Source: Klebsiella phage FKP3
Sequence record: PP895363.1
Length of the DNA stretch: 64,000 bases
Strand: one strand, 5' to 3'
The notes beneath the pieces were generated by a model that ran no database searches, was not told the origin of the DNA, and worked only from the letters and a program-made list of their open reading frames with translations. Position 1 is the stretch's first letter; every line of letters starts with the position of its first letter. The position numbers and the translations under genes were made by a program. Below are positions 9,980-56,551 of this stretch, in pieces.

Positions 9980-11386
9980 TTATGAAGATGTTGTGCTGCT
10001 ATTGCTAGTAGTACTGCTCGAAGTACGATTGGTCAATACGTTGACCTGTACTTTGACATAGTGGAAGAACCCAGCGTAGACATATTCAATAACCATTCCA
10101 TCAACCAGACGTTGATTGATTTGAGCATCAGTCATATCTGCACGAGAAGGGATATAGACAGTAGGTTTTAAACTTACTAATTGACCTGTTTCTTCTGAAG
10201 TAACAATTTCATTGGCAATAGTACCGTTCAGAATACCTACTTGAATTGGGTTAGCAGTAACTGCTTGACGAATCAATGCTAAACCAGCAGAAGTTGCACG
10301 AACACCTGAACCCATCATGGATTGTTGTTTGAACAGGGCGAACAGGGATTCATCTACACGTGCTTTGAACCATAATGCATGAACAATATAGTCAGCATAG
10401 AAGCCACTAACCATGAATCCATCACGGTAGAACAATGTTCCATGCTCTTTACGATAGATATTTCCGTTCTGCTGAACAATGTAGTTCTCAGCTGTAGTGC
10501 TAAGTTTTTCTAGTTCAATACCAACAAGAGTTTTACCATGTAAGGTTGTAACACCTGGTTGAGCAGAACAAATACTACCAACCACAGCAGCTTCCGGGAA
10601 GACAGAGTCGGCTGTACTCATCCACAATGCCATGCTGGTGTTATTATAACCCATATTCCCAAGACGTTTGAGAATGTTGCCTTCCGCATTAGTGGTAATT
10701 GCTGTATCAGAACTGGAGAAGAAATAAACTTTATCATGTTCTTCTACATAACCTGCCAAGTCGATAATATCTTGATCAGCGTGGGAGTCTGACAGTAACC
10801 AGAACCAGGAGTTATCTGCATCTGCAATAGCGGTAATATCTTCTGAGATATCATTTGCATATGCTACTGTTCCTGTTAAGCCGCTTGCAGAAACTGTTGC
10901 TAGTTTACCAACTACCGGGGTAAAGGTAATAACAGCACCATCATTTGCTACAGTGAAATACGCACTGTATGTAGAATCTGCATTAATGAGATCTGTTAGT
11001 CCTACTACAATCTCTTGGGCAGTGGCGGAAGTATCTGCAACAAAAGTAAAATCTTTTGAATTTTGTCCTGCTTTAATAGTGACTGTGTAGGTAGCACCAT
11101 TAACAACAGTAGGGGTGAAAGTAAAAGTACTTACTTCACGTTTACCAATCATTACTTGCTGTGGTTTAAACAAGCCATCAAATAATAGTTTAGCCATTTT
11201 ATAGGCTGGATCACTTGTACTAAAACCTGCGGCTAGTAATGCATCGGTTGAAGTAAAGTAATCTACAAGATTATCAGTGACGTTATGCCCTGTAAGAATT
11301 AGAGGGATATCAAATTGTGTTTCACTGATTGAAGTAGCGCCGTAAGTTAGAGTAACGGAAACTACCTTATCACGAAAAGTTGCCAT
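9980..11386 (-). CDS. tail sheath protein
   Basis: 468 aa ORF preceding the tube gene, size and position typical of a contractile sheath. Confidence 0.5.
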   Translation of the reverse strand: MATFRDKVVSVTLTYGATSISETQFDIPLILTGHNVTDNLVDYFTSTDALLAAGFSTSDPAYKMAKLLFDGLFKPQQVMIGKREVSTFTFTPTVVNGATYTVTIKAGQNSKDFTFVADTSATAQEIVVGLTDLINADSTYSAYFTVANDGAVITFTPVVGKLATVSASGLTGTVAYANDISEDITAIADADNSWFWLLSDSHADQDIIDLAGYVEEHDKVYFFSSSDTAITTNAEGNILKRLGNMGYNNTSMALWMSTADSVFPEAAVVGSICSAQPGVTTLHGKTLVGIELEKLSTTAENYIVQQNGNIYRKEHGTLFYRDGFMVSGFYADYIVHALWFKARVDESLFALFKQQSMMGSGVRATSAGLALIRQAVTANPIQVGILNGTIANEIVTSEETGQLVSLKPTVYIPSRADMTDAQINQRLVDGMVIEYVYAGFFHYVKVQVNVLTNRTSSSTTSNSSTTSS

Positions 11387-12583: not shown

Positions 12584-13072
12584 TTATTTTTTAGAACGTC
12601 TACGAGTAACTTTAGTTTCAATACCATTTATTAAGTGACCACTATCAATAAGTATGTGAGTAGAATAGTTACCTTTATCTTGACGTATTTTAATAGTTAC
12701 AGGAGATAGTGGACGATATCTTTGTAACGCAATTGCTTGGGCAATACCTTCTCGGGAAGCTTTTGCTACAGGTTCAAATGCTGCCAAACCTTTTCCGTGT
12801 AATAAGTAATCTCTGAACACTGTAGTCCATAACTTAGGTATTTCTTTACTTGCATGTAGTGCTCCGTCCGTTAAAAACGGCCTTGCTGGAGTATTATTAG
12901 TATCACTACCGAACTGCTGAATAGCTGCAATGGCAGGAAGAGTGAGATCAGTTTCAGGATGTTTCTTTGGAGTTAGATAGCCTGCATCTATCTCAATATT
13001 ATCTAAAGCTAATATTTTTTTAAAATACTCATCAAGAGACATATCGTCTCCTTTTGTGATCTCACTTTTCAT
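12584..13072 (-). CDS. head-tail connector/neck protein
   Basis: 162 aa ORF. Confidence 0.25.
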   Translation of the reverse strand: MKSEITKGDDMSLDEYFKKILALDNIEIDAGYLTPKKHPETDLTLPAIAAIQQFGSDTNNTPARPFLTDGALHASKEIPKLWTTVFRDYLLHGKGLAAFEPVAKASREGIAQAIALQRYRPLSPVTIKIRQDKGNYSTHILIDSGHLINGIETKVTRRRSKK

Positions 13073-13620
13073 TACCTATCTCTTCTATAAAATCCCACTG
13101 GCCCATAATTTCTTAGATAATTAATATTTCTAGTATTTCTATCTACACTAGCAACACCACCTAAGCCATTTACAGAGTTAGGATCACTATTTACACGTTC
13201 GATTTCTCTGGCATCTACACCGCCAACGAGAATTTTACTTGTAACACCTCGTCCAGATGCACAACCAGGGATCATCATGTCTCCATTCAGATACCCGTTA
13301 TAGATATCCTCCCAAGGTGAATGGTATTCTGATTGCCCATTGCTGAACACTACTTCTACTTGTATTTCACCAACTTTCTCTTTCCTAGAGATAGCCCCGC
13401 CAGTTTGGTCGTTGTGATTTAATAGATCAGTGTTCCAAAGATATTCAAGAACGGAAATTAAACTATTCCATAGCACTGCACACTTATTACTATCATTATT
13501 ACCTATAATATCAATCCATGTTTGAATTATCTGTTCAACTATCTCATCAGGAAGAACTTCTTGTGAGGGATTGAACACAAGTATGCGTATCATAGGGACT
13601 AAATCAGCAGCTACTAACAT
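13072..13620 (-). CDS. head completion/neck protein
   Basis: 182 aa ORF, 1-nt overlap with neighbour. Confidence 0.25.
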   Translation of the reverse strand: MLVAADLVPMIRILVFNPSQEVLPDEIVEQIIQTWIDIIGNNDSNKCAVLWNSLISVLEYLWNTDLLNHNDQTGGAISRKEKVGEIQVEVVFSNGQSEYHSPWEDIYNGYLNGDMMIPGCASGRGVTSKILVGGVDAREIERVNSDPNSVNGLGGVASVDRNTRNINYLRNYGPVGFYRRDR

Positions 13621-13629
13621 AGATGCTCC

Positions 13630-13989
13630 TTATTTCTGTGAAGGGGCGGAACGCTGAGATCTTTTCTTAGCTGGGGTATCTACTGCTTTTACTTCTAAAA
13701 CTTCTTGTTTTTCATTCTGAACAGGCGCATAATCTTCATAGCTTACTAAAAAGAAGCCTCTCTGTTCTTCACTTCCAAAAGGATTTACTTTCAGTCCGGT
13801 TTCTTCTCTAAGACGAGTTAAGAAGTGAATAAAATTTCCACCTAGAGCCACACGACCATCTTTAGTATAAAAAGACATAGGAGGTGCAGTGGTTAGTGTT
13901 TTCTCAAAATCTAAGTTAGAAGCAAGTTCTGAGAAATCTTTTACCATTTCATGGTAACTAAAATAAGTTTTTACAGTTGGATTTGACAT
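13630..13989 (-). CDS. hypothetical head-proximal protein
   Basis: 119 aa ORF directly after capsid terminator. Confidence 0.25.
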   Translation of the reverse strand: MSNPTVKTYFSYHEMVKDFSELASNLDFEKTLTTAPPMSFYTKDGRVALGGNFIHFLTRLREETGLKVNPFGSEEQRGFFLVSYEDYAPVQNEKQEVLEVKAVDTPAKKRSQRSAPSQK

Positions 13990-18869: not shown

Positions 18870-20033
18870 TTATCTTGATCTTATTTTATAAGGTTGACCA
18901 AAAGATGCCCTACTTCCACTAGACATTTTACCATATCCTGTGGTAGCTCCTAGTGGCGTAGGAATGGCTACAGCCTTGAATACAGCCTCTTTCATCAGTG
19001 TATTAAAACAAGATGCCGCAGCATCCGGGATATCGTCTTTGAGTGTTGCAGTAGACCTCTCTCCATTGAAAGATTCTAATTCTTTATAAAAGTGATCTAA
19101 AGTTTCTTTATTTGGGAAAGAGTCTTCAACAATATATACAAAACCATTTTGACAAGCACTACTAAAAGGCATAAAACGCTGTAGTTTCTTTTTGTTCCCT
19201 GGCATTGCATCAGGTTTTACAATGAAACCTTCAGAAATAAGCTTCTTAGCAGATTCTGTATATTCAATCAAACCTGCACCAGATGGGTCTTTAGGAAGAA
19301 CTACAATAACCTCATCTCCATCAATTTTACATTGATTAAGAATCAAATTATCTCGTTCACCCGGTAATCTTCTAAATCTACCAAAGATTTTACTTTTCTC
19401 ATCTACTGCATCGTAATCATAATCTCCGAAGATATAGACATTACCATCAGTATCTTTACCCATTTTGACAGACGTGGTATAGTCTGGATAACGATACGAT
19501 TCTGTCGGAACAGATACAGCTTTATCCCATGCTCGCATATACTTCATATTATTTGGCACATCTGAATATTTAATTACATGCAACCATTCTCTATTGAAGA
19601 AACTTTCTTCTTGTGCTCTTGCAAACCAACACCCATCTAAGAGCTGTGCTCTTTTCACTGCGGTTTGTGCTTTCAGAGAGGCTAGATATTTAGGATTAAG
19701 ACGTATAAGCTCTGGATTATCAAATATAGTTCCGCCGATAAATACAAAGCTCTGCGGTTCGATAGTAACTATTTCGCCTGTATTTGGGTTTTCCATGAAG
19801 CAGTTTTCAGGATACTTTTCCTTTAGTTCTTCTGGGTCTTCTGCAAATACCGGTTCATCATTTACAATAAGAAAATATAGTTGTTTACCACACATGTCGT
19901 CGCGTGGAAATCCTGCTTCATCTAGATAAGGTAATACCCAATTAATAACCCAACTATCTGCATCTGGGTTACAGGTGCATAGCATAAAAGATGTTGCAGA
20001 CTCAGAACGTAAACGACCAAGAAGGTAAAGCAT
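18870..20033 (-). CDS. terL: terminase large subunit, downstream exon (nuclease domain); true 5' boundary 20034-20078
   Basis: 387 aa ORF with ...SFMLCTCNPDADSWV... (ATPase motif III-like) and a C-terminal nuclease-sized domain. Same reading frame (mod 3) as the ATPase fragment 21390-22253. Frame is open upstream to 20078. Confidence 0.6.
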   Translation of the reverse strand: MLYLLGRLRSESATSFMLCTCNPDADSWVINWVLPYLDEAGFPRDDMCGKQLYFLIVNDEPVFAEDPEELKEKYPENCFMENPNTGEIVTIEPQSFVFIGGTIFDNPELIRLNPKYLASLKAQTAVKRAQLLDGCWFARAQEESFFNREWLHVIKYSDVPNNMKYMRAWDKAVSVPTESYRYPDYTTSVKMGKDTDGNVYIFGDYDYDAVDEKSKIFGRFRRLPGERDNLILNQCKIDGDEVIVVLPKDPSGAGLIEYTESAKKLISEGFIVKPDAMPGNKKKLQRFMPFSSACQNGFVYIVEDSFPNKETLDHFYKELESFNGERSTATLKDDIPDAAASCFNTLMKEAVFKAVAIPTPLGATTGYGKMSSGSRASFGQPYKIRSR

Positions 20034-21389
20034 TTCATATTGTGTGAAATGTGTCCTGGTGTTCGAGAAGGCACGTTACGACCTTCCCCGAGATTACTCT
20101 CTGCTGCATGTTTCCATGCAGAGCAGACTATATCATCATCCATTAGGATGCCTTGCGCTTCGCCTCACTTGAGGCTACTCTACTCACTTCCGTATTTCTA
20201 CGTGCTTTCGATAGTCGTTAAACTTTACACCACACAAACTAAAAATTATAATCCTTGGATACTTCTGTAAAAGTTTTCCTAGATTTTATTCCGTACACTC
20301 TCTGATAGTTTAGGTGTTCACTGCAATGCATCTTAACTATTGCACCACATTTAAAACCTTTCTCTAACATCTCGCATATCCATTTAACTGTCTCTACTGA
20401 TAAGGTAGCTGGTCGCGTCAGATTGAAAGTATAATCTTTCACTATGTCTGCAAATATAGCCTTCCTTTTAATATTTCGTACTGTGTGATAAGCTACACCA
20501 ACTGTTTCAGAAACATCTTTCGGACTCAAGCCCTCTTCTAAAAGCTCACAGATCGTTCTTACTTCATGTTCTGTCATATTAGTATTTGGACTATTTATAC
20601 CAGCAGCTTTTACATGTAAACCTGTGTCATAAGCATGTTGTACGTTCTGAGAACAACTTACCCATTCCAAATTACTAGGATGATAATTCATTTTATTTCC
20701 ATCCTTATGGTTTACTTGTTTGTACTCCTCTGGAGAAGGATTCTCTACAAAGATTTCAGCCACTATGACATGGAGAGATTTTGTAGTTCTGCGTCCTGTA
20801 TCAGTAGTCATTGCAACAGCAGGATAACCTCCTCTATTACAACGAATAGTTAATTTATTATTTAGTTTTGTACTAAAGATTTCATAATTATCAGTCATAT
20901 GATACTTAGAAAATCCTTTTATTTCATGCATTTTCACCTCCTGCTAACATTAGGAGTTTGCATGGTGTCTTAGCTTGGTATTGCCCTCGTCTCTACGTTA
21001 GGGGTTTCACCAAATTCACAAGGTTTTCGATACATGTTCCCATGTAAAGGCTCTAAAAATCAAAGCTCGTCGAAACCGACCATACTGTATTGTGTACCTT
21101 GCAGTACGTGTTGATTTACTTAGCATATAGGTAAATCGGAGGATTCCTCCTCACCCTTTATGTTACCATAAAGATCAGACCATATCATAACCCACGTCCT
21201 ATGGGTTGTTGGCGCTTGGAGATCGCTTGATCCCTACTCTACTTACAAGCTTTAGCATCTTGCGTCTTGCTTTCGATGGTCGTTGCACCTTACTCCGAAG
21301 AGTCTTGGCTCAGGATTGTCCTCACAATGAGGAGTTTCCCTGAATTCACCAACTTATTCAACATACATTACTGTATGAGGCCACCAAGT
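20034..21389 (-). mobile_element. putative group I intron carrying HNH homing endonuclease, interrupting terL
   Basis: 1356 nt separates the two terL halves. About 450 nt of ORF-free, structure-rich sequence precedes the HNH ORF. That sequence contains AAUCCUGAGCCAAG and UAACGUAGAGACGAGGG strings, which I recall as resembling group I core elements of the Anabaena tRNA-Leu intron. An RBS (GGAGGUG) precedes the HNH ATG. Confidence 0.5.
20239..20937 (-). CDS. HNH homing endonuclease (intron-encoded)
   Basis: 232 aa; ...VNHKDGNKMNYHPSNLEWVSCSQN... HNH motif, paralogous to ORF 32345-32920. Confidence 0.7.
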   Translation of the reverse strand: MKMHEIKGFSKYHMTDNYEIFSTKLNNKLTIRCNRGGYPAVAMTTDTGRRTTKSLHVIVAEIFVENPSPEEYKQVNHKDGNKMNYHPSNLEWVSCSQNVQHAYDTGLHVKAAGINSPNTNMTEHEVRTICELLEEGLSPKDVSETVGVAYHTVRNIKRKAIFADIVKDYTFNLTRPATLSVETVKWICEMLEKGFKCGAIVKMHCSEHLNYQRVYGIKSRKTFTEVSKDYNF

Positions 21390-22253
21390 TTAATGGTTAG
21401 TTTCCGCTGTTACGTTATCATTTTCTAAGTGGTCGAATTTTAATGTTCCACCTCCGGTAGCTCTGAACTCCATTTCCATAGCTTGTTCACGAACATGTGG
21501 CTGAAGTTTCAGATATAGCTTTTTAGCTTCTGTAAATAACCCACCAGGCTTACGTAGAGCTGTTGTATTTTTACGGAATAGGATTCCGCCAAACAGTGGG
21601 TCTTTGCAAGCATATTTTAAAGCTTTCAGCAGGAGTAGACGAGACTTGCCGCTATTCCCAGTAACGAAGATATGATCGCCACGTCTAAAGACAACATAAC
21701 TGCTTGGAGTTTCAAAACAATATTTTTTATCATCACTTGTCATTACCTCGTGTATTTTTAGATAAGTGTTAGTTTTACCTGAGATATTAAATGGTACTCT
21801 TTTACCGAAAGGATTTTCTACATACCCTCTAAGTGGTTCTCCTGCTTGCTGCAATGCAATAAGATCTCCAACTAAAATCTCAAAATGTTTTTTAGATTTT
21901 TTCTTTTTATAGAATACAAACCTGTGTTCCATACTAAGTTCTTGGAATAAACCCACACCATTTGTTATTCTATATAAGTTATCTTTTGTATCATACTCTA
22001 CAAAGTATGGACTAACTAACTCCAGTTTCCTGTTTCTTGGATTGTATTGATAAATATCTTCTCCCGAGTATTGATCAATTCTCTTCCATCCTGCTGGTGT
22101 TAAATACTCTGTCTCTGCTGTAACGCATCCCGCAGCACCCCCATAAATCATTACCTCTGGCATTAAATCCATTGCTAATGTTTGTTTACCCGGTTGAGCT
22201 TTTACTTCAATCTCAATATTTGCTAAGTTTGTCTTAACTGGTTTACGTGCCAA
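21390..22253 (-). CDS. terL: terminase large subunit, upstream exon (ATPase N-part) containing a mini-intein
   Basis: MIYGGAAG|C...intein...N|SGKSRLLLL: the flanks join to GGAAGSGKS, a perfect Walker A motif. Confidence 0.65.
   Translation of the reverse strand: MARKPVKTNLANIEIEVKAQPGKQTLAMDLMPEVMIYGGAAGCVTAETEYLTPAGWKRIDQYSGEDIYQYNPRNRKLELVSPYFVEYDTKDNLYRITNGVGLFQELSMEHRFVFYKKKKSKKHFEILVGDLIALQQAGEPLRGYVENPFGKRVPFNISGKTNTYLKIHEVMTSDDKKYCFETPSSYVVFRRGDHIFVTGNSGKSRLLLLKALKYACKDPLFGGILFRKNTTALRKPGGLFTEAKKLYLKLQPHVREQAMEMEFRATGGGTLKFDHLENDNVTAETNH
21654..22127 (-). mobile_element. mini-intein (158 aa) inserted in the terminase Walker A P-loop
   Basis: Starts with Cys (CVTAETEYLTPAGWKRI...), ends ...DHIFVTGN followed by Ser; no endonuclease domain; excision predicted to restore GAAGSGKS. 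Confidence 0.6.
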
Positions 22254-30557: not shown

Positions 30558-32276
30558 CTATTTCACTTCAATCAAATGATTCATAACCTCTTTATCCAGA
30601 CGAGCACGGATATCGTTGAAATCTTCATCACGACCGTTCACCTGGGGAATTAATACATTCCCGTTACGGAAGATGGGTTGAAGCAGGTTATCTTCATCAT
30701 TAATCTCTTCAAACGAGATGTTATCCACTTGATGCAGGATACCATCTTTACGAACAACCTTGATGAATCCTTTCGCAGAGCGTTTACTTGGGTCTGTTTT
30801 CGGTTCTTTGCTCACCATGATTTCGTAATCGTCAATGAAGCAGCCAGTCGCTTTCACAGCCATACCAAAGGTATCACGAGTGTTAAACTGATAGGTGAAG
30901 CTACCAACGCCGAATACGATGTTTGAAGAAGCAAAACCCTTTTCTTTGAGACGTTTAAGAATTTCGATCTCACGCTCAACAGTGATAGAATCCCCGTAAA
31001 TCATGCCGATGTGAGTATCCAGCACTTTATAGCCTTTGCTGTTCACTTCACCACCAAAGATTTCCCACAATACTTGGATGGAACCTACAGCCTCATGGCG
31101 TGGAATCTGTTGACATTCTGCGTCAATAACCCAAGTCTGAGTCGTTAATGAATAACGGGGTTCAAAATAACCATTTTTTGTACTAACCAAAAGGTCTTCA
31201 ACTTCATATGGTTTAATGTTTTCCAGTTCTTCTTCACTAACAATGTTGTATCCCGCAACTACTTTAACCGGATCACCAGAATCAGGACGAACAACCAAAC
31301 GACCATTACGCATCATGATTTCTTCTTTCAGTTCCGGCAGAATACGAGTGAGCACAGCCCAGTAATCGTAAGAGTCTGCAACATAAGAGCAGAAACCTTC
31401 CGGCACAATGTCTCGGATGAAAGTCAGAAGGAATTCCTTCTCAGCCAGATAACGGAGGCCATCTACATCACCTGCTAAGTGAGGGAAATGCTCTTCCAGA
31501 TCTTTTACGATACGACTGATATTGGTAGTTGCAACAGAGTGTTCAGAAGCAGGGATACTACCAGCTACAAACTGATCATCATCAATACCATAGTATTCGT
31601 GGACAGCTTCAATACCCAAGATGTTATCTGTACCAGTGAACGACGCTAGGTGAGCGATGCCACTCTTATACCCGTCTTCTACGGTGGACAAACCACGCAG
31701 ACTGAAATCATGACACTGGAAGTTAACGTGATCCACGTTGTCACAGGTTGCCAGGGCGTAGGACATTGCCACACGCTTATACTGGAACGCAGCGGTTGCG
31801 TTGGTGATCGTTTTCCAGCTTTCGGTTGACATAAGTGTTTCGATGTAGTTAGTCACCCAGAAGAATTTCTCTACGGTGTTATGGATGGTATACACCGGAA
31901 TACCAATCGGTGACAGAATACCTTCCGGCAGAGCGCGGATTTCAACTGGCAGATAACCCAGATCGTGAAGTTCACCCCAACATTCTGCTGATGGTGCAGC
32001 AGCGCCAAGTGCGTTTTTGGACATACGAGCAAATTTCTTCACAGCAGCTCCACGCTTCATCTTGAAGAATTTCTTCCACATTCCAACCATTGAGTCCATT
32101 ACCATGCGGCGCAGACCCAAGACAATAACGCCACGAGCATTCTTATCAGCGTAATGAGCAAAGTTTTTGTCATTACGTGGTGTCAGGTTAGAGAAGATTA
32201 GCTTTGTGTTCTGGTTGTACATCGGCTTGTGACCAGGTTTATACCAATCAGCAGCGAACGGTGCAAAAATTTCCAT
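30558..32276 (-). CDS. nadV: nicotinamide phosphoribosyltransferase (NAMPT/NadV)
   Basis: 572 aa; DWYKPGH, LHDLGYLPVEIRALPEG, HVNFQCHDFSLRGLSTVE, IYGDSIT motifs closely parallel bacterial/phage NadV sequences as I recall them. Confidence 0.8.
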   Translation of the reverse strand: MEIFAPFAADWYKPGHKPMYNQNTKLIFSNLTPRNDKNFAHYADKNARGVIVLGLRRMVMDSMVGMWKKFFKMKRGAAVKKFARMSKNALGAAAPSAECWGELHDLGYLPVEIRALPEGILSPIGIPVYTIHNTVEKFFWVTNYIETLMSTESWKTITNATAAFQYKRVAMSYALATCDNVDHVNFQCHDFSLRGLSTVEDGYKSGIAHLASFTGTDNILGIEAVHEYYGIDDDQFVAGSIPASEHSVATTNISRIVKDLEEHFPHLAGDVDGLRYLAEKEFLLTFIRDIVPEGFCSYVADSYDYWAVLTRILPELKEEIMMRNGRLVVRPDSGDPVKVVAGYNIVSEEELENIKPYEVEDLLVSTKNGYFEPRYSLTTQTWVIDAECQQIPRHEAVGSIQVLWEIFGGEVNSKGYKVLDTHIGMIYGDSITVEREIEILKRLKEKGFASSNIVFGVGSFTYQFNTRDTFGMAVKATGCFIDDYEIMVSKEPKTDPSKRSAKGFIKVVRKDGILHQVDNISFEEINDEDNLLQPIFRNGNVLIPQVNGRDEDFNDIRARLDKEVMNHLIEVK

Positions 32277-32344
32277 TTGTTTCTCCTTTCTCTTGTTTGT
32301 TTCGATGGGAGAAGATTAATTCATCCTCTCCATAAAGTCAACAA

Positions 32345-32920
32345 TTATTCGACAGAATCTTCAACTTTTATACGCAAGAATGTACAACCTCTATGTGATC
32401 TACGTTTACCCAAGCAAACATCACTAACCAATCTAAAATCGAAACCAGCTTCTTCCAGCTCTTTGTTACCATTGCAGATATGAATTATTTCATTCTCTGC
32501 ACTTATTACAAAAGTCGTGTATAAAAGTCTTGCAGCCTTTCTACCAGTATGGATTGTTTTTAAACCAGTATCTATGGCATGTTTCTGATTTTCTTGGTTC
32601 GTTGACCATTCTAAGTTGTCCTTATGATTGTTCTCCTTATTACCATCCTTATGATTAACCTGTCTTTTGTTCATGGGGTTTGGTACAAAAGCCTCGGCAA
32701 CTAATCTGTGAACTCTAAAGCGCTTTGACTTTCTGTTTACTGACAAATAAACATTCAAATACCCATACTTATCTCTTGAAGGTTGTAAAACACAACCTGT
32801 GTAGAGCAGAGGTTTGCCAGTATCACTACGGTATACTATACGATCAAGAGAACGGATAGTACCGTCATCACCTACTTCGTAGAACCCCTCATAGCCGGGA
32901 ATAGCAACAAATTCTGTCAT
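32345..32920 (-). CDS. HNH homing endonuclease
   Basis: 191 aa; VHRLVAEAFVPNP...VNHKDGNKENNHKDNLEW...; same family as 20239-20937; inserted between nadV and prs. Confidence 0.7.
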   Translation of the reverse strand: MTEFVAIPGYEGFYEVGDDGTIRSLDRIVYRSDTGKPLLYTGCVLQPSRDKYGYLNVYLSVNRKSKRFRVHRLVAEAFVPNPMNKRQVNHKDGNKENNHKDNLEWSTNQENQKHAIDTGLKTIHTGRKAARLLYTTFVISAENEIIHICNGNKELEEAGFDFRLVSDVCLGKRRSHRGCTFLRIKVEDSVE

Positions 32921-33843
32921 TTAACTATTAACTTCTGTAGCATTTCTTGGTTCTCCACTAAAATACCTTTGGTATTACGACCATGTATGTTATTTCCCCA
33001 AGCATTAAAACAATGAATGGAGTCTATGATGCCATCAAAAATATCTATTCCTTTACCAAAGATGCCGTGTGTCACATACAGTTCTACACGCCCTGCATTT
33101 CTCTCCTTAAGAAGTTTACCTAATGCAAGGAATGTTCCACCGTTATCACAAATATCGTCCACAATCATAAGGTTTGCACCGTGGAAGTCTTGCACACTGA
33201 TATCTGTGCGAATGATGTCTCCAGTCGCCGTATCACGAATCTTATCTGCACAATGTACAGGAAGCTCCATACGTTTAGCCAGTTTGAAGATTTTCTTCAA
33301 CGCTCCACCATCTGGGCTAACCAACTCAAAATTCTCCATACGTAGTTTCCATTTTAAAACATGGAAAGCAATCTCATCTTGAGAAATGGCATCCAGATTG
33401 GTAATCACTGCTGGTGTCACTTCACTGTGTGGGTCAGCCACCAATACACGAGAGAACTCCAAGATGTTTAGAAGACGAGCAAACGACTTAACACCAAACG
33501 CCTCACCTTTCTCGCAGTAACGATCTTGTCGTGCATACGGAACGTATAGGGAAAACAGTTCAATTGGTTTTGGATTGAATCGTAAGATTTCGTCCAAAGC
33601 ATCCTTCACCATTACCACAGCCATAAAATCATCTGAGGAACGGATATCTTGGTGAACTTCTACTTTTTGAATAGTAGTTAAGTCAATGAAAGAATATTTG
33701 AAAGCCTCCATATCAATCTTCACATGCACTTCACCACCGGAGAAGGTGAACACCTTTACTGAAATATCATTATCGTGACCCCACTGGTCAATAACATTAA
33801 TCTTCATCTTCTTCCTCCGATTCTTCCATTGCTTCAATTTCAC
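32917..33843 (-). CDS. prs: ribose-phosphate pyrophosphokinase (PRPP synthetase)
   Basis: 308 aa; LVSPDGGALKKIFKLAKR and PRPP-binding loop LMIVDDICDNGGTF; 4-nt overlap with HNH gene. Confidence 0.7.
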   Translation of the reverse strand: MKLKQWKNRRKKMKINVIDQWGHDNDISVKVFTFSGGEVHVKIDMEAFKYSFIDLTTIQKVEVHQDIRSSDDFMAVVMVKDALDEILRFNPKPIELFSLYVPYARQDRYCEKGEAFGVKSFARLLNILEFSRVLVADPHSEVTPAVITNLDAISQDEIAFHVLKWKLRMENFELVSPDGGALKKIFKLAKRMELPVHCADKIRDTATGDIIRTDISVQDFHGANLMIVDDICDNGGTFLALGKLLKERNAGRVELYVTHGIFGKGIDIFDGIIDSIHCFNAWGNNIHGRNTKGILVENQEMLQKLIVK

Positions 33844-47556: not shown

Positions 47557-47598
47557 GAGAGTAATATAAGCCCCACAGACGGGGCTTTGAGGAGAAAC

Positions 47599-48198
47599 AT
47601 GAGAATCGTTTGTGATTGTGATTTAGTAATAGCTCCGGCTGATGTTGCCTGGCTTGCCTGGTTGAATGCTGTAAGTGGTGATAATGTGGTATTGCCAACA
47701 TCTGGCAAAGATGCACTTTATAACCTAGCCGATTACTTCCCAGACTTCGAAAAAAGGTTTGGTATTGATCCGCACTCATTCTGGGATAATCAGCATCTCT
47801 ACGACACAATGGGTACAGTGCCAGGTAGCGTGAACACTCTTAACTATCTGGGTAAGGCTGGAGATACTCTTCTTATCGCAAGCCATACAAAGGGTGGACA
47901 TTTTAGTTCCAAATATCGTTATATAAAGCGTAACCTTCCTGAATTTGATTTTGGGAGAGGCACAGGTAATGGCTTCTTCGCAACCAAGGAGAAATACTTA
48001 CTACCTTGTGATATAACAATTGATGATCGGGCAGAAAATCTTGTGCTATTCCCGGATCATGTTGTAAAGATATACTTTAATACTATTTACGAAGACCCAT
48101 TTTTAGAAGAATTAAAAGCACTACCAAATGTATTGATAACTTCAATTGAAGATCCTTGGAAGGATATCTTTAATGTTGTGGACATTTATCATAAATAA
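47599..48198 (+). CDS. HAD-superfamily phosphatase (possible 5'-deoxynucleotidase)
   Basis: N-terminal IVCDCDLVIAP (DxD catalytic motif) after GAGGAG RBS; ORF-track 47587-48198. Confidence 0.35.
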   Translation: MRIVCDCDLVIAPADVAWLAWLNAVSGDNVVLPTSGKDALYNLADYFPDFEKRFGIDPHSFWDNQHLYDTMGTVPGSVNTLNYLGKAGDTLLIASHTKGGHFSSKYRYIKRNLPEFDFGRGTGNGFFATKEKYLLPCDITIDDRAENLVLFPDHVVKIYFNTIYEDPFLEELKALPNVLITSIEDPWKDIFNVVDIYHK

Positions 48199-52178: not shown

Positions 52179-52183
52179 TATCA

Positions 52184-52209
52184 AGGGGCGAAAGCCCCTT
52201 TATTTTTCT
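52184..52209 (+). terminator. rho-independent terminator after nrdA
   Basis: AGGGGCGAAAGCCCCT followed by TTATTTTTCT. Confidence 0.5.
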
Positions 52210-53643: not shown

Positions 53644-53847
53644 ATGATTGAATTTGAAGACGCTAGTATAATTTCAGAATTAGTTGTTGAGGAAGGTGGT
53701 GCTGTTGACTTTGTGTCTAATGATGGAAGTCTTAAGAAAGGTTACTCCATATTCGTCAAATCAGAAGAATCAGGAGATATTTTTGAGTTGGTGTTATCAG
53801 AACTAGAGTTGAAAACTATGCTTAAACAGATTAAAGAGGAGTTATAA
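53644..53847 (+). CDS. hypothetical acidic protein
   Basis: 67 aa ORF. Confidence 0.25.
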   Translation: MIEFEDASIISELVVEEGGAVDFVSNDGSLKKGYSIFVKSEESGDIFELVLSELELKTMLKQIKEEL

Positions 53848-54173
53848 TGGGAATTGATATTGGCTGGAAAATGATTCAAGGTGCTCCTTTCTCAGTTTGG
53901 GAGCAAGCATTAGGAGATAATGAAGAAGTTGTTGAAGGATATGATGGGGATTTCACTTGGTTCCTATATGATTGTCTTAAAGTAGTTTCTGCTTCTCCTT
54001 ATTATGATGCTGCTCAAGAAGATTGTATGTTTGGTGTTGAACTAGCTGGCGGGGATTATGCAAAAGATATAGATTTGAAATTCCTTACTGTAAAGGCTGA
54101 AGAAATTGCTAAAGAACTTAAAGAGAAATATGGAATTGAGACAACAACCATTTGCAGTCAAAATGTTTGGTAA
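53847..54173 (+). CDS. hypothetical protein
   Basis: 108 aa ORF. Confidence 0.3.
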   Translation: MGIDIGWKMIQGAPFSVWEQALGDNEEVVEGYDGDFTWFLYDCLKVVSASPYYDAAQEDCMFGVELAGGDYAKDIDLKFLTVKAEEIAKELKEKYGIETTTICSQNVW

Positions 54174-54754
54174 GAGGGGTAAGAGTGGAGAATACTCATA
54201 ACGTAAGAGAGACAGGTATTGAAGGTCTCCTAATAATCACACCTAGAGTATTTGCTGATGACCGAGGATTTTTTCTAGAATCTTTTAATCAAGCTCGTTA
54301 TGATACTCTTATTGGAAAATATACATTTGTTCAAGACAATCATTCTCGTTCTTCAAAAGGAGTCCTGCGTGGACTCCACTATCAAGAAACAAATCCTCAA
54401 GGTAAGTTGGTGCGATGCACAAGTGGCATGGTCTTTGACGTAGCTGTTGATTTGCGTGAAGGTAGTCCGACCTTTGGAGAGTGGGAGGGTGTGGTACTTA
54501 GCGAACAAAACAAGGTGCAGTTCTGGATTCCACCAGGCTTCGCCCACGGTTTCGTTGTGGTTTCTGATACTGCCGACTTCGAGTACAAATGCACTGAATA
54601 TTACGATCCTACGTCAGAGCGTAGCCTCGCTTGGAATGATCCAGATGTGGCTGTTGATTGGGGATTTGACCTCATCTTTAATGATGACTACTTTAAGCCT
54701 ATCTTGTCCCAAAAAGACCGAGAGGCTAAAACGTTAAGGGAGATCTTTGGATGA
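54152..54754 (+). CDS. rmlC: dTDP-4-dehydrorhamnose 3,5-epimerase-like cupin (RmlC)
   Basis: VLRGLHYQ...PPGFAHGFVVVSD...YDPTSERSLAWNDPDVAVDW: hallmark RmlC motifs; the start may be the internal GTG at 54185. Confidence 0.7.
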   Translation: MQSKCLVRGVRVENTHNVRETGIEGLLIITPRVFADDRGFFLESFNQARYDTLIGKYTFVQDNHSRSSKGVLRGLHYQETNPQGKLVRCTSGMVFDVAVDLREGSPTFGEWEGVVLSEQNKVQFWIPPGFAHGFVVVSDTADFEYKCTEYYDPTSERSLAWNDPDVAVDWGFDLIFNDDYFKPILSQKDREAKTLREIFG

Positions 54755-55593
54755 AACGTTACTTAGTATTGGGAGCGCAAGGACAATTAGGCCAAGCACT
54801 CAAGAAAGTGAAACCCGATGACGTGGAACTCATCAGACCTGATCGTAAACGCAGCGACATTACCAATTTTGAGCAAATCCGTAACTTGATTATTGATGAG
54901 ATGCCAGATGCAGTTATTAACTGTGCAGCTTACACGGATGTTGACAAAGCAGAAGATAACATTCAAGCGGCTTTAGAAGTAAATGCTTATGGTGCGGCTA
55001 ATATTGCTAAAATTTGTAGTGAATTGCACATTGATTTAATCCACATTTCGACTGATTATGTTTTTGATGGTTCATTCCCTGGTATTGAAGGTGCTCAGAC
55101 CAATCCTTTGAACGTATACGGTTATTCCAAACGTTTTGGTGAGGAATTAGTTCATGCCGTTCATCCTGGGGCATTAATTATTCGTACTGCTTCGGTATAC
55201 AGTGAGTTTGGCAATAACTTCCTCAAAACACTGTTAAGTCGTTATAACGCAGGTCAGAGGGAGTTTGATGTGATCTGTGATCATTATTCCTGCCCAACAT
55301 ATGCTCCTGATCTTGCTGAGACGATTTTTACTATGCTGGAGTACGGGGTTGGTGCTAGGATATATCATTATGCAGGCAAGGACTATTTAAGTTGGTATGA
55401 CTTCGCTACAAATATTTTCTGCGAAATAGATACGACAGTTAAAGTGAATCCAATATCTGCTTCGCAATATAATTCCAAGGCACCACGTCCTGCTAAATCT
55501 TATCTTGAAACCAAAGGCTTTCTGAATCCAAAACCAGTAGTCTGCGGTATTAATGAATCACTGAAAGTTCTATTAAATAAGGAGAGAGAATGA
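54751..55593 (+). CDS. rmlD: dTDP-4-dehydrorhamnose reductase (RmlD)
   Basis: GAQGQLG Rossmann, VINCAAYTDVDKAE, ISTDYVFDG, NVYGYSK (YxxxK), IIRTASVYSEFGNNFLKTLL align along the full length with bacterial RmlD as I recall it. Confidence 0.75.
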   Translation: MKRYLVLGAQGQLGQALKKVKPDDVELIRPDRKRSDITNFEQIRNLIIDEMPDAVINCAAYTDVDKAEDNIQAALEVNAYGAANIAKICSELHIDLIHISTDYVFDGSFPGIEGAQTNPLNVYGYSKRFGEELVHAVHPGALIIRTASVYSEFGNNFLKTLLSRYNAGQREFDVICDHYSCPTYAPDLAETIFTMLEYGVGARIYHYAGKDYLSWYDFATNIFCEIDTTVKVNPISASQYNSKAPRPAKSYLETKGFLNPKPVVCGINESLKVLLNKERE

Positions 55594-55856
55594 ATTTTGT
55601 AATCTACGGTAAACCTGACTGCCAATTCTGCAACATGGCTAAACAACTGTTGGAGATGAGAGGTCAGGATTTTAAATATCTTACCTTGGATGAAGATTAT
55701 TCTCTAGACCACATGCAAGCAGTGGTCATAGAGAAAACAGGAGTTCCACCACGCACTTTTCCTCAGATTCTAGTACAGGAAGATGCTGACGTGGACTATA
55801 AACACGTAGGAGGTTTTACAGAACTACGTGAATTCATGGCTCAGATTGCGGAGTAA
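55590..55856 (+). CDS. glutaredoxin / NrdH-like redoxin
   Basis: 88 aa, CQFC active site near the N-terminus. Confidence 0.65.
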   Translation: MNFVIYGKPDCQFCNMAKQLLEMRGQDFKYLTLDEDYSLDHMQAVVIEKTGVPPRTFPQILVQEDADVDYKHVGGFTELREFMAQIAE

Positions 55857-56515: not shown

Positions 56516-56551
56516 CAAAGGGGCGTAAGCCCCTTATTAAGGAGCGGTACT

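Follow-up and report, generated by a model that had tools for sequence, protein, structure and literature searches.

Phages related to Escherichia coli phage phi92 and to phAPEC8 (Stephanstirmvirinae) carry genes for synthesis of deoxythymidine diphosphate (dTDP)-L-rhamnose. In phi92, four genes, gp067 (RmlB-like), gp066 (RmlA-like), gp065 (RmlC) and gp064 (RmlD), lie in a slot bordered by nrdB/gp069 and the glutaredoxin gene, so that the genes run gp069, gp068, rmlB, rmlA, rmlC. What these genes are for is an acknowledged loose end in a group of phages that attracts interest for its broad host range and for therapy. The full pathway has been called “peculiar” in the literature, Olsen 2020 (PMC7552041) speculated on DNA glycosylation, and Maffei 2021 (PMC8594841) found the phi92-like phages tested, which are sister phages of the one studied here, to be sensitive to restriction-modification (RM) systems “despite ... 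a putative dTDP glycosylation machinery”. In the literature on rhamnose with phAPEC8, on rhamnose with Stephanstirmvirinae and on glycosylated phage capsids, our searches turned up no study of what these rml genes do. Here, we analyze a 64,000-nucleotide stretch of Klebsiella phage FKP3 (sequence record PP895363.1; hereafter the window), in which RmlC and RmlD are encoded by two neighboring open reading frames (ORFs) on the plus strand. The pair occupies the same slot as the rmlBACD cassette of phi92 and the phAPEC8-like phages (nrdB ... gp069, the cassette, then glutaredoxin-gp062-lysozyme-PhoH), and the same partner genes are found elsewhere in the genome. In contrast to phi92, gp068, rmlB and rmlA are missing from the locus in the Klebsiella-phage lineage, and neither rmlA nor rmlB occurs anywhere in the genome of its member phi1_175008. 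The gene pair is already annotated in relatives, and the family-wide pathway and the DNA-glycosylation idea are in print; what we add is a two-gene end state that appears host-dependent and under selection, an erosion series leading to it, and a proposed tie between the rml genes and a portable cassette with glycosyltransferase genes. So far, this refines a known feature only modestly.

Among more remote parallels, giant viruses combine rhamnose nucleotide-sugar enzymes with glycosyltransferases for virion glycans, as in the UDP-L-rhamnose pathway of Mimivirus and the capsid glycans of chloroviruses. Their sugars are UDP- or GDP-linked and they are eukaryotic viruses; we claim no homology, and the phage function discussed below is putative. 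With the DNA glucosylation of phage T4, the locus has nothing in common beyond the broad notion that a phage employs a nucleotide sugar and a glycosyltransferase; neither a hydroxymethylase nor a BGT/AGT-like fold was found in the searches described below, and relatives are restriction-sensitive. Cluster F1 mycobacteriophages (the Che8 kind) have glycosylated capsids, according to Freeman 2023 as cited in PMC11256854. They resemble our case in that several phage-encoded glycosyltransferases occur together and that the GT-A enzyme discussed below is a distant homolog of the mycobacteriophage glycosyltransferases; they differ in that here the phage supplies nucleotide-sugar enzymes too and infects a Gram-negative host, and in that glycosylation of phi92-like virions is a proposal.

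Judged by their residues, both genes are predicted to encode full-length, catalytically intact RmlC and RmlD. RmlC matches Pfam family PF00908 (E-value 1e-71) over profile positions 1-168 of 168 and scores 249.4 bits against the NCBIfam equivalog model TIGR01221 “rmlC”, above its cutoff of 155.75; RmlD matches PF04321 (E-value 2.7e-77) and, with 262.8 bits, likewise exceeds the cutoff of 224.05 of the equivalog model TIGR01214 “rmlD”. RmlD is not of the enterobacterial RfbD type: it falls below the cutoff of model NF007440 (131 bits versus 308), and its best solved relatives come from Bacillus and Clostridium. All of the family motifs that a first-pass annotation of the window had quoted are present: RGLHYQ at residue 62, PPGFAHGF at 116 and YDPTSERSLAWNDP at 140 of RmlC, and GAQGQLG at residue 8, YGYSK at 123 and NNF at 155 of RmlD. 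In a MAFFT alignment, H65, K74, Y134 and D178 of RmlC correspond to His63, Lys73, Tyr133 and Asp170 of the Salmonella enzyme (1DZR), whose roles we take to be catalytic, and are invariant across Salmonella RmlC and phi92 gp065. The Rossmann GxxGxxG motif of RmlD (G8-x-x-G11-x-x-G14) and its short-chain dehydrogenase/reductase (SDR) triad (Thr101 in STDYVF, Tyr123-x-x-x-Lys127 in YGYSK) align with the same motifs in the solved RmlD structures 3SC6 and 1VL0. The first-pass annotation had allowed that the two proteins could be inactive paralogs lacking catalytic residues; all of these residues are retained. Overall, the phage enzymes are homologous to bacterial ones (Salmonella RmlC 1DZR and RmlD 1KBZ, Bacillus anthracis RmlD 3SC6) along their full length and share their catalytic residues and the cofactor motif. 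They differ in a 7-residue insertion near the C-terminus of RmlC, common to phi92, and in that the genes reside in a virus without rmlA and rmlB. Both ORFs of the span 54152-55593 first assigned to the pair are real; position 54152, however, is a mechanical ORF start (TTG) overlapping the end of the upstream gene, and the likely start of RmlC is GTG 54185, behind AGAGGGG, which yields 189 amino acids, the length given in the annotations of KP13-26, KP2025 and phi1_175008.

The region is 97.8% identical to KP2025, 97.6% to KP13-26 and 94% to phi1_175008, while the stretch from rmlD to the glutaredoxin gene is approximately 72% identical to phi92 and its relatives. By these comparisons, the window is assigned to a phi92-like Klebsiella myovirus of the Stephanstirmvirinae. 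At the protein level, RmlC is 77% identical to phi92 gp065 by MAFFT (78% by tblastn), RmlD is 63% identical to gp064, and the glutaredoxin is 72% identical to the thioredoxin-domain protein gp063. RmlA and RmlC are present across phi92-like and phAPEC8-like phages. At identities of at least 60%, tblastn returned 133 records for the tail sheath, 131 for RmlC and 130 for the GT-B glycosyltransferase discussed below; the rml and GT-B traits are therefore near-universal in the subfamily, and no Vequintavirinae were among the RmlC or GT-B matches. Considering that GenBank records of close relatives already annotate both genes as rfbC/rmlD, that the trait is nearly subfamily-wide and that its role has been speculated upon in print (Olsen 2020), the initial description of the pair as the most likely novel system in the window was overstated.

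The absence of rmlA and rmlB from the window, noted in the first-pass annotation, was borne out, and it holds more widely: used as tblastn queries, phi92 RmlA and RmlB had no match either in the window or in phi1_175008, whose 149.5-kb genome is complete (best E-value at least 0.5; 0.51 for RmlB). Where phi92 and its IMG/VR relatives have approximately 2 kb encoding rmlB and rmlA, the window has a junction of 11 nucleotides, which reads as the scar of a clean deletion. The nearest IMG/VR relatives of the window's RmlC (90% identity) retain rmlB-rmlA-rmlC-rmlD, and a 148.7-kb IMG/VR contig has rmlA-rmlC-rmlD at the locus, with a clean 12-nucleotide junction in place of rmlB. Because the complete set is found in phi92 and in these nearest relatives, and the three-gene set in one contig, we regard the four-gene cassette as ancestral and as eroding from its upstream end (BACD to ACD to CD), with the window as the end state and with rmlC and rmlD inherited vertically within the phi92/phAPEC8 subfamily. 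In a survey of 80 IMG/VR RmlC loci, many of them on short contigs of unchecked viral status, B+C was the most frequent set (57/80), followed by C only (12/80), B+A+C (2/80) and A+C (1/80), while the combination of C+D only was found in none of the 80. Partial 6-deoxyhexose pathways thus seem widespread in environmental phages. FKP3 resembles these phages in keeping only part of the pathway, the remainder presumably being the host's; they retain the early step RmlB without a recognizable RmlD, whereas FKP3 retains the last two steps. A second, distant SDR is often present in the loci with B+C or C only.

The reading frames of rmlC and rmlD are intact in the four sequenced genomes without rmlA and rmlB that we compared. 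Ratios of nonsynonymous to synonymous divergence (dN/dS), calculated by the Nei-Gojobori method across these four genomes, were 0.034 for rmlC (window versus phi1_175008; 68 synonymous versus 15 nonsynonymous differences) and 0.035-0.07 for rmlD, with 0.005-0.03 for the comparison genes nrdA and nrdB. These values indicate strong purifying selection on both genes since the loss of rmlA and rmlB, and we therefore do not regard them as remnants. Synonymous divergence (dS) of rmlC from its phi1_175008 counterpart (positions 31145-31714 of that genome) was approximately 1.0, compared with 0.1-0.35 for flanking genes, while the pattern was reversed against KP13-26 and KP2025 (approximately 0.01 for rmlC and 0.2 for rmlD). 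Because the dS of rmlC is out of step with that of its neighbors, we regard the gene as mosaic, which points to recombination breakpoints inside the two-gene cassette.

Where would the substrate come from? RmlA and RmlB are present in many Enterobacterales strains. Moreover, RffH and RffG make dTDP-4-keto-6-deoxy-D-glucose in an obligatory step of enterobacterial common antigen (ECA) synthesis, and the ECA_PG form is found in all Enterobacterales (PMC7439462). Since the host makes this intermediate, RmlC and RmlD alone could yield dTDP-L-rhamnose by diversion. That the phage completes a host intermediate was among the possibilities raised in the first-pass annotation, and we infer it as the most economical reading. 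After deletion of rmlB and rmlA, the Klebsiella-phage lineage would have come to depend on host dTDP-4-keto-6-deoxy-D-glucose, supplied by RffH/RffG or, where present, by RmlA/RmlB; phage RmlC would epimerize it at C3 and C5, and phage RmlD would then reduce C4 with NAD(P)H to give dTDP-L-rhamnose. The lineage would in that sense be a natural minimal version of the pathway, and strong selection on its two last steps points to dTDP-L-rhamnose itself as what the phage needs.

Candidate users of such a donor are encoded elsewhere in the genome. Among the genes thought worth seeking outside the window, rmlA and rmlB are missing from phi1_175008, but glycosyltransferases and DNA methyltransferases are encoded. 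Its glycosyltransferases, all outside the region equivalent to the window, are a GT-A enzyme of 210 amino acids and a GT-B enzyme of 320 amino acids, the latter orthologous to phi92 gp164 (67% identity); a 189-amino-acid ortholog of gp166 (74% identity) is also kept in the Klebsiella lineage. Unlike phi92, the lineage has no ortholog of gp163, and in place of gp165 it has, at another locus, a different GT-A with only 35% identity. This GT-A (phi1_175008 positions 13062-13694) is 50-51% identical to the GT-A enzymes of prophage cassettes in Klebsiella variicola and Enterobacter huaxiensis, which suggests that the original gene was replaced through exchange with temperate phages that infect the same hosts. 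The GT-A also has matches in 559 mycobacteriophage records at 24-31% identity (E-values down to approximately 1e-13), in line with distant homology. A structure model of GT-B (predicted local distance difference test score 95.8) matched GT4 enzymes in Foldseek, including sucrose-phosphate synthase, PglA, TarM, PimB', BshA/MshA and the protein O-glycosyltransferases SdgB and Gtf3, while neither T4 BGT nor AGT was among the 50 matches listed. Sequence searches of PDB chains with the three glycosyltransferases gave nothing usable.

“Bacterial” homologs of GT-B proved to lie in prophages. In K. variicola and E. huaxiensis, the prophage order is antiterminator Q, lysis genes, a cassette of gp166-like, RmlB-like NDP-sugar dehydratase, GT-A and GT-B genes, and then HNH, terminase and capsid genes. 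In a Pseudomonas alliivorans prophage, gp166-like, GT-A and GT-B genes are flanked immediately by the major capsid gene on one side and by head-tail connector genes on the other, and in Pseudomonas silvicola and one metagenomic phage, GT-A and GT-B are followed by terminase. In total, the glycosyltransferase genes accompany a late or structural module in 5 of the 6 homologous-cassette contexts of other phages, while in phi92-like phages they lie beside replication genes. Because the cassette is found among structural genes in temperate phages, twice together with a sugar dehydratase, we consider that it is best explained as a portable module for glycosylation of proteins, presumably of the virion; the rml genes of the Stephanstirmvirinae would be its donor-supply arm. 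One GT-B homolog (42% identity) on a Trinickia symbiotica contig (positions 2742-9026) lies outside any obvious prophage and adjoins an intimin/invasin-like adhesin gene (IAT_beta, Big_1); it may represent a setting in which a bacterium glycosylates proteins with an enzyme of this glycosyltransferase family.

Taken together, our preferred reading, at roughly even odds (probability about 0.5), is that the phage finishes a host intermediate to obtain a dTDP-L-rhamnose donor for its own glycosyltransferases, probably acting on virion proteins late in infection. The gp166-like, GT-A and GT-B cassette would use this donor to glycosylate phage structural proteins rather than DNA. A number of observations weigh against this. 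The predicted GT-B fold is of the GT4 type, which serves many acceptor types and so would not discriminate between them, and characterized GT4 members are mostly retaining enzymes. Within the subfamily, the glycosyltransferase genes adjoin replication genes (primase, DNA polymerase) rather than structural genes, and co-occurrence of rml and glycosyltransferase genes there reflects shared ancestry and is no independent test. The enzyme family does not fix the stereochemistry at C4, so that the reductase may produce dTDP-6-deoxy-L-talose instead of L-rhamnose. E. coli hosts have RffH and RffG too, yet E. coli phages keep rmlA and rmlB. Finally, we infer rather than observe the supply of substrate by the host, rhamnose as the sugar used by the glycosyltransferases, and virion proteins as the acceptor.

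One candidate acceptor was rejected as evidence. The tail sheath (ORF 9980-11386, minus strand) ends in a Ser/Thr-rich low-complexity C-terminal tail (window positions 9980-10042; ...NRTSSSTTSNSSTTSS) that could be an O-glycosylation site. The tail is found in the Klebsiella and phi92-like lineages (including phage alia), but it is missing in the phAPEC8-like phages ZCKP1 and PsgM04F, which belong to a group that has both rml and glycosyltransferase genes; Vequintavirinae sheaths have other short tails. Arginine rhamnosylation of elongation factor P (EF-P) by an EarP-like enzyme was dropped as well, as GT-B has no EarP family match. Enterobacterial EF-P is lysylated, not rhamnosylated. The JEP7 “virion glycosylation” paper concerns other phages and is uninformative here.

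The fuller picture, a Gram-negative myovirus whose virions bear L-rhamnose-containing glycans made by two enzymes that hijack an ECA intermediate and by a portable three-gene cassette, we put forward as a tentative proposal that is less probable than its alternatives combined. If true, it would extend virion glycosylation, shown so far for mycobacteriophages, to therapy-relevant enterobacterial phages, with a cassette whose spread also takes in temperate phages of Klebsiella, Enterobacter and Pseudomonas. For therapeutic phages of Klebsiella and E. coli, glycosylation of the virion would influence how the immune system recognizes them and how they behave pharmacologically; should the virions not be glycosylated, the envelope-remodeling and dTTP-sparing alternatives weighed below would matter to the study of phage metabolism.

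Of these alternatives, we consider remodeling of the host envelope the strongest, though improbable. Phage glycosyltransferases or host enzymes would use dTDP-L-rhamnose to alter lipopolysaccharide, O-antigen, ECA or capsule, which could exclude superinfecting phages or prevent progeny from adsorbing to debris, and diversion of the intermediate may by itself perturb ECA, given that RmlC competes for it with WecE (PMC7439462). Lipid-linked or polymeric glycans are the substrates of many GT4-type GT-B enzymes (PglA, PimB', TarM), and phi92-like phages recognize surface glycans and bypass the O-antigen via the NGR glycan (PMC8594841). However, the cassette of temperate phages lies inside a late lytic operon or head-tail module rather than a lysogenic-conversion locus, the phi1_175008 genome annotation contains no flippase, polymerase or GtrAB-type partner, and a lytic cycle probably leaves little time for envelope turnover. 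Slightly less probable still is an economy of deoxythymidine triphosphate (dTTP) that would need no glycosyltransferase: RmlC and RmlD would turn host dTDP-4-keto-6-deoxyglucose into dTDP-L-rhamnose, which would allosterically inhibit the host glucose-1-phosphate thymidylyltransferase (G1P-T), so that less dTTP is lost to dTDP-sugars and more thymidine nucleotide is left for replication of phage DNA. This fits the CD-only configuration well, as well as the position of the genes, which appear co-transcribed and coupled with nrdB and the glutaredoxin gene beside thyX and nrdA. Feedback inhibition of RmlA by dTDP-beta-L-rhamnose is documented, as is the role of the dTDP-sugar pool as a thymidine reservoir, a hyperactive G1P-T lowering dTTP (PMC12773781). 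The ancestral and commonest state, on the other hand, includes phage RmlA and RmlB, which would consume dTTP; the conserved glycosyltransferase cassette is left unexplained, and the model assumes that RffH shares the allosteric inhibition of RmlA.

Glycosylation of DNA bases, in which rhamnose would be placed onto a modified base in the style of T4 glucosyl-hydroxymethylcytosine, was favored in the first-pass annotation and has been proposed in print (Olsen 2020). Proximity of the rml genes to nucleotide-metabolism genes, and of the glycosyltransferase cluster to primase and DNA polymerase genes in the subfamily, would agree with it. We nevertheless regard it as very unlikely, since, according to Maffei 2021 (PMC8594841), the phi92-like phages that carry the full pathway “lack any effective protection” against RM systems, to which they are “exceptionally susceptible”. 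In addition, the sole thymidylate-synthase-like gene found is ThyX (Thy1, PF02511), with no ThyA-family dCMP/dUMP hydroxymethylase according to the phi1_175008 annotation and one Pfam scan. Known hydroxymethylases derive from ThyA. The several DNA methyltransferases encoded imply ordinary bases, GT-B resembles GT4 enzymes and had no T4 glucosyltransferase among its 50 listed matches, and homologous cassettes reside in ordinary temperate prophages, within structural modules. The position amid nucleotide-metabolism genes, on which the earlier suggestion had leaned, is a weak clue: the block also holds a lysozyme gene, and PhoH and HslV genes come next. Least probable of all is that rmlC and rmlD are a decaying, functionless remnant of the lost pathway. 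The lineage does lack 2 of the 4 pathway genes and 2 of the 4 glycosyltransferase genes of the phi92 set, but dN/dS values of 0.03-0.07 at substantial divergence (rmlC dS up to approximately 1.0), as low as those of the ribonucleotide reductase genes, led us to reject this explanation; retention of every catalytic residue, the clean deletion, and preserved ribosome-binding sites and coupling argue in the same direction.

Coordinates of the locus are collected in Table 1. The stop codon of rmlC overlaps the start codon of rmlD in an ATGA sequence, as does that of rmlD with the start of the glutaredoxin gene, and the Shine-Dalgarno sequence of each downstream gene lies within the preceding one; rmlC, rmlD and the glutaredoxin gene are therefore predicted to be translationally coupled. 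In a consensus scan, two hairpins bracket the block from nrdB through rmlC-rmlD-grx to the lysozyme gene (Table 1). Terminator-like hairpins exceeded the expectation from shuffled sequence, whereas promoter-like sites were no commoner than in shuffled sequence (34 found versus 36.7 expected), and we therefore claim no promoter.

Table 1. Features of the rml locus, with positions in the window.
Feature	Position	Strand	Basis
Terminator-like hairpin after nrdA, possible upstream limit of the unit	52183..52200	+	Consensus scan only
gp069 ortholog, 108 aa, phrog_15453, upstream edge of the rml slot	53847..54173	+	46% identity to phi92 gp069 over 108 aa
11-nt junction where relatives have gp068, rmlB and rmlA; contains the rmlC Shine-Dalgarno sequence	54174..54184	+	Sequence read
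rmlC, dTDP-4-dehydrorhamnose 3,5-epimerase	54185..54754	+	189 aa from GTG 54185; PF00908, TIGR01221
rmlD, dTDP-4-dehydrorhamnose reductase	54751..55593	+	280 aa; PF04321, TIGR01214
Glutaredoxin gene, downstream edge of the rml slot in all relatives	55590..55856	+	PF00462 at 5e-12
GC-rich palindromic hairpin just past the lysozyme gene, possible downstream limit	56518..56535	. (reported on minus strand)	Consensus scan only

Further genes of the window merit a brief description. Directly upstream of thyX, an ORF of 203 amino acids (47587-48198, plus strand) matches the deoxy-pyrimidine 5'-nucleotidase family NT5C (PF06941, E-value 3e-6) and may be a further pyrimidine-nucleotide enzyme in the block. 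On the minus strand, ORFs of 572 and 308 amino acids (approximately 30558-33843) lie where phi1_175008 has genes annotated as nicotinamide phosphoribosyltransferase and ribose-phosphate pyrophosphokinase. The annotation of that genome lists a nicotinamide mononucleotide adenylyltransferase and a PnuC-like transporter elsewhere, and going by this annotation alone, the genes would form a phage NAD+ salvage set. The gene for the large subunit of the terminase (18870-22253, minus strand) is split by an insertion of 1,338 nucleotides (20052-21389) that is not found in phi1_175008. This insertion encodes an HNH_3 endonuclease ORF of 232 amino acids (20239-20937) and matches the Rfam group I intron family RF00028 at 21156-21403 (87.2 bits versus a gathering score of 50, plus weaker matches); it looks like a mobile intron.

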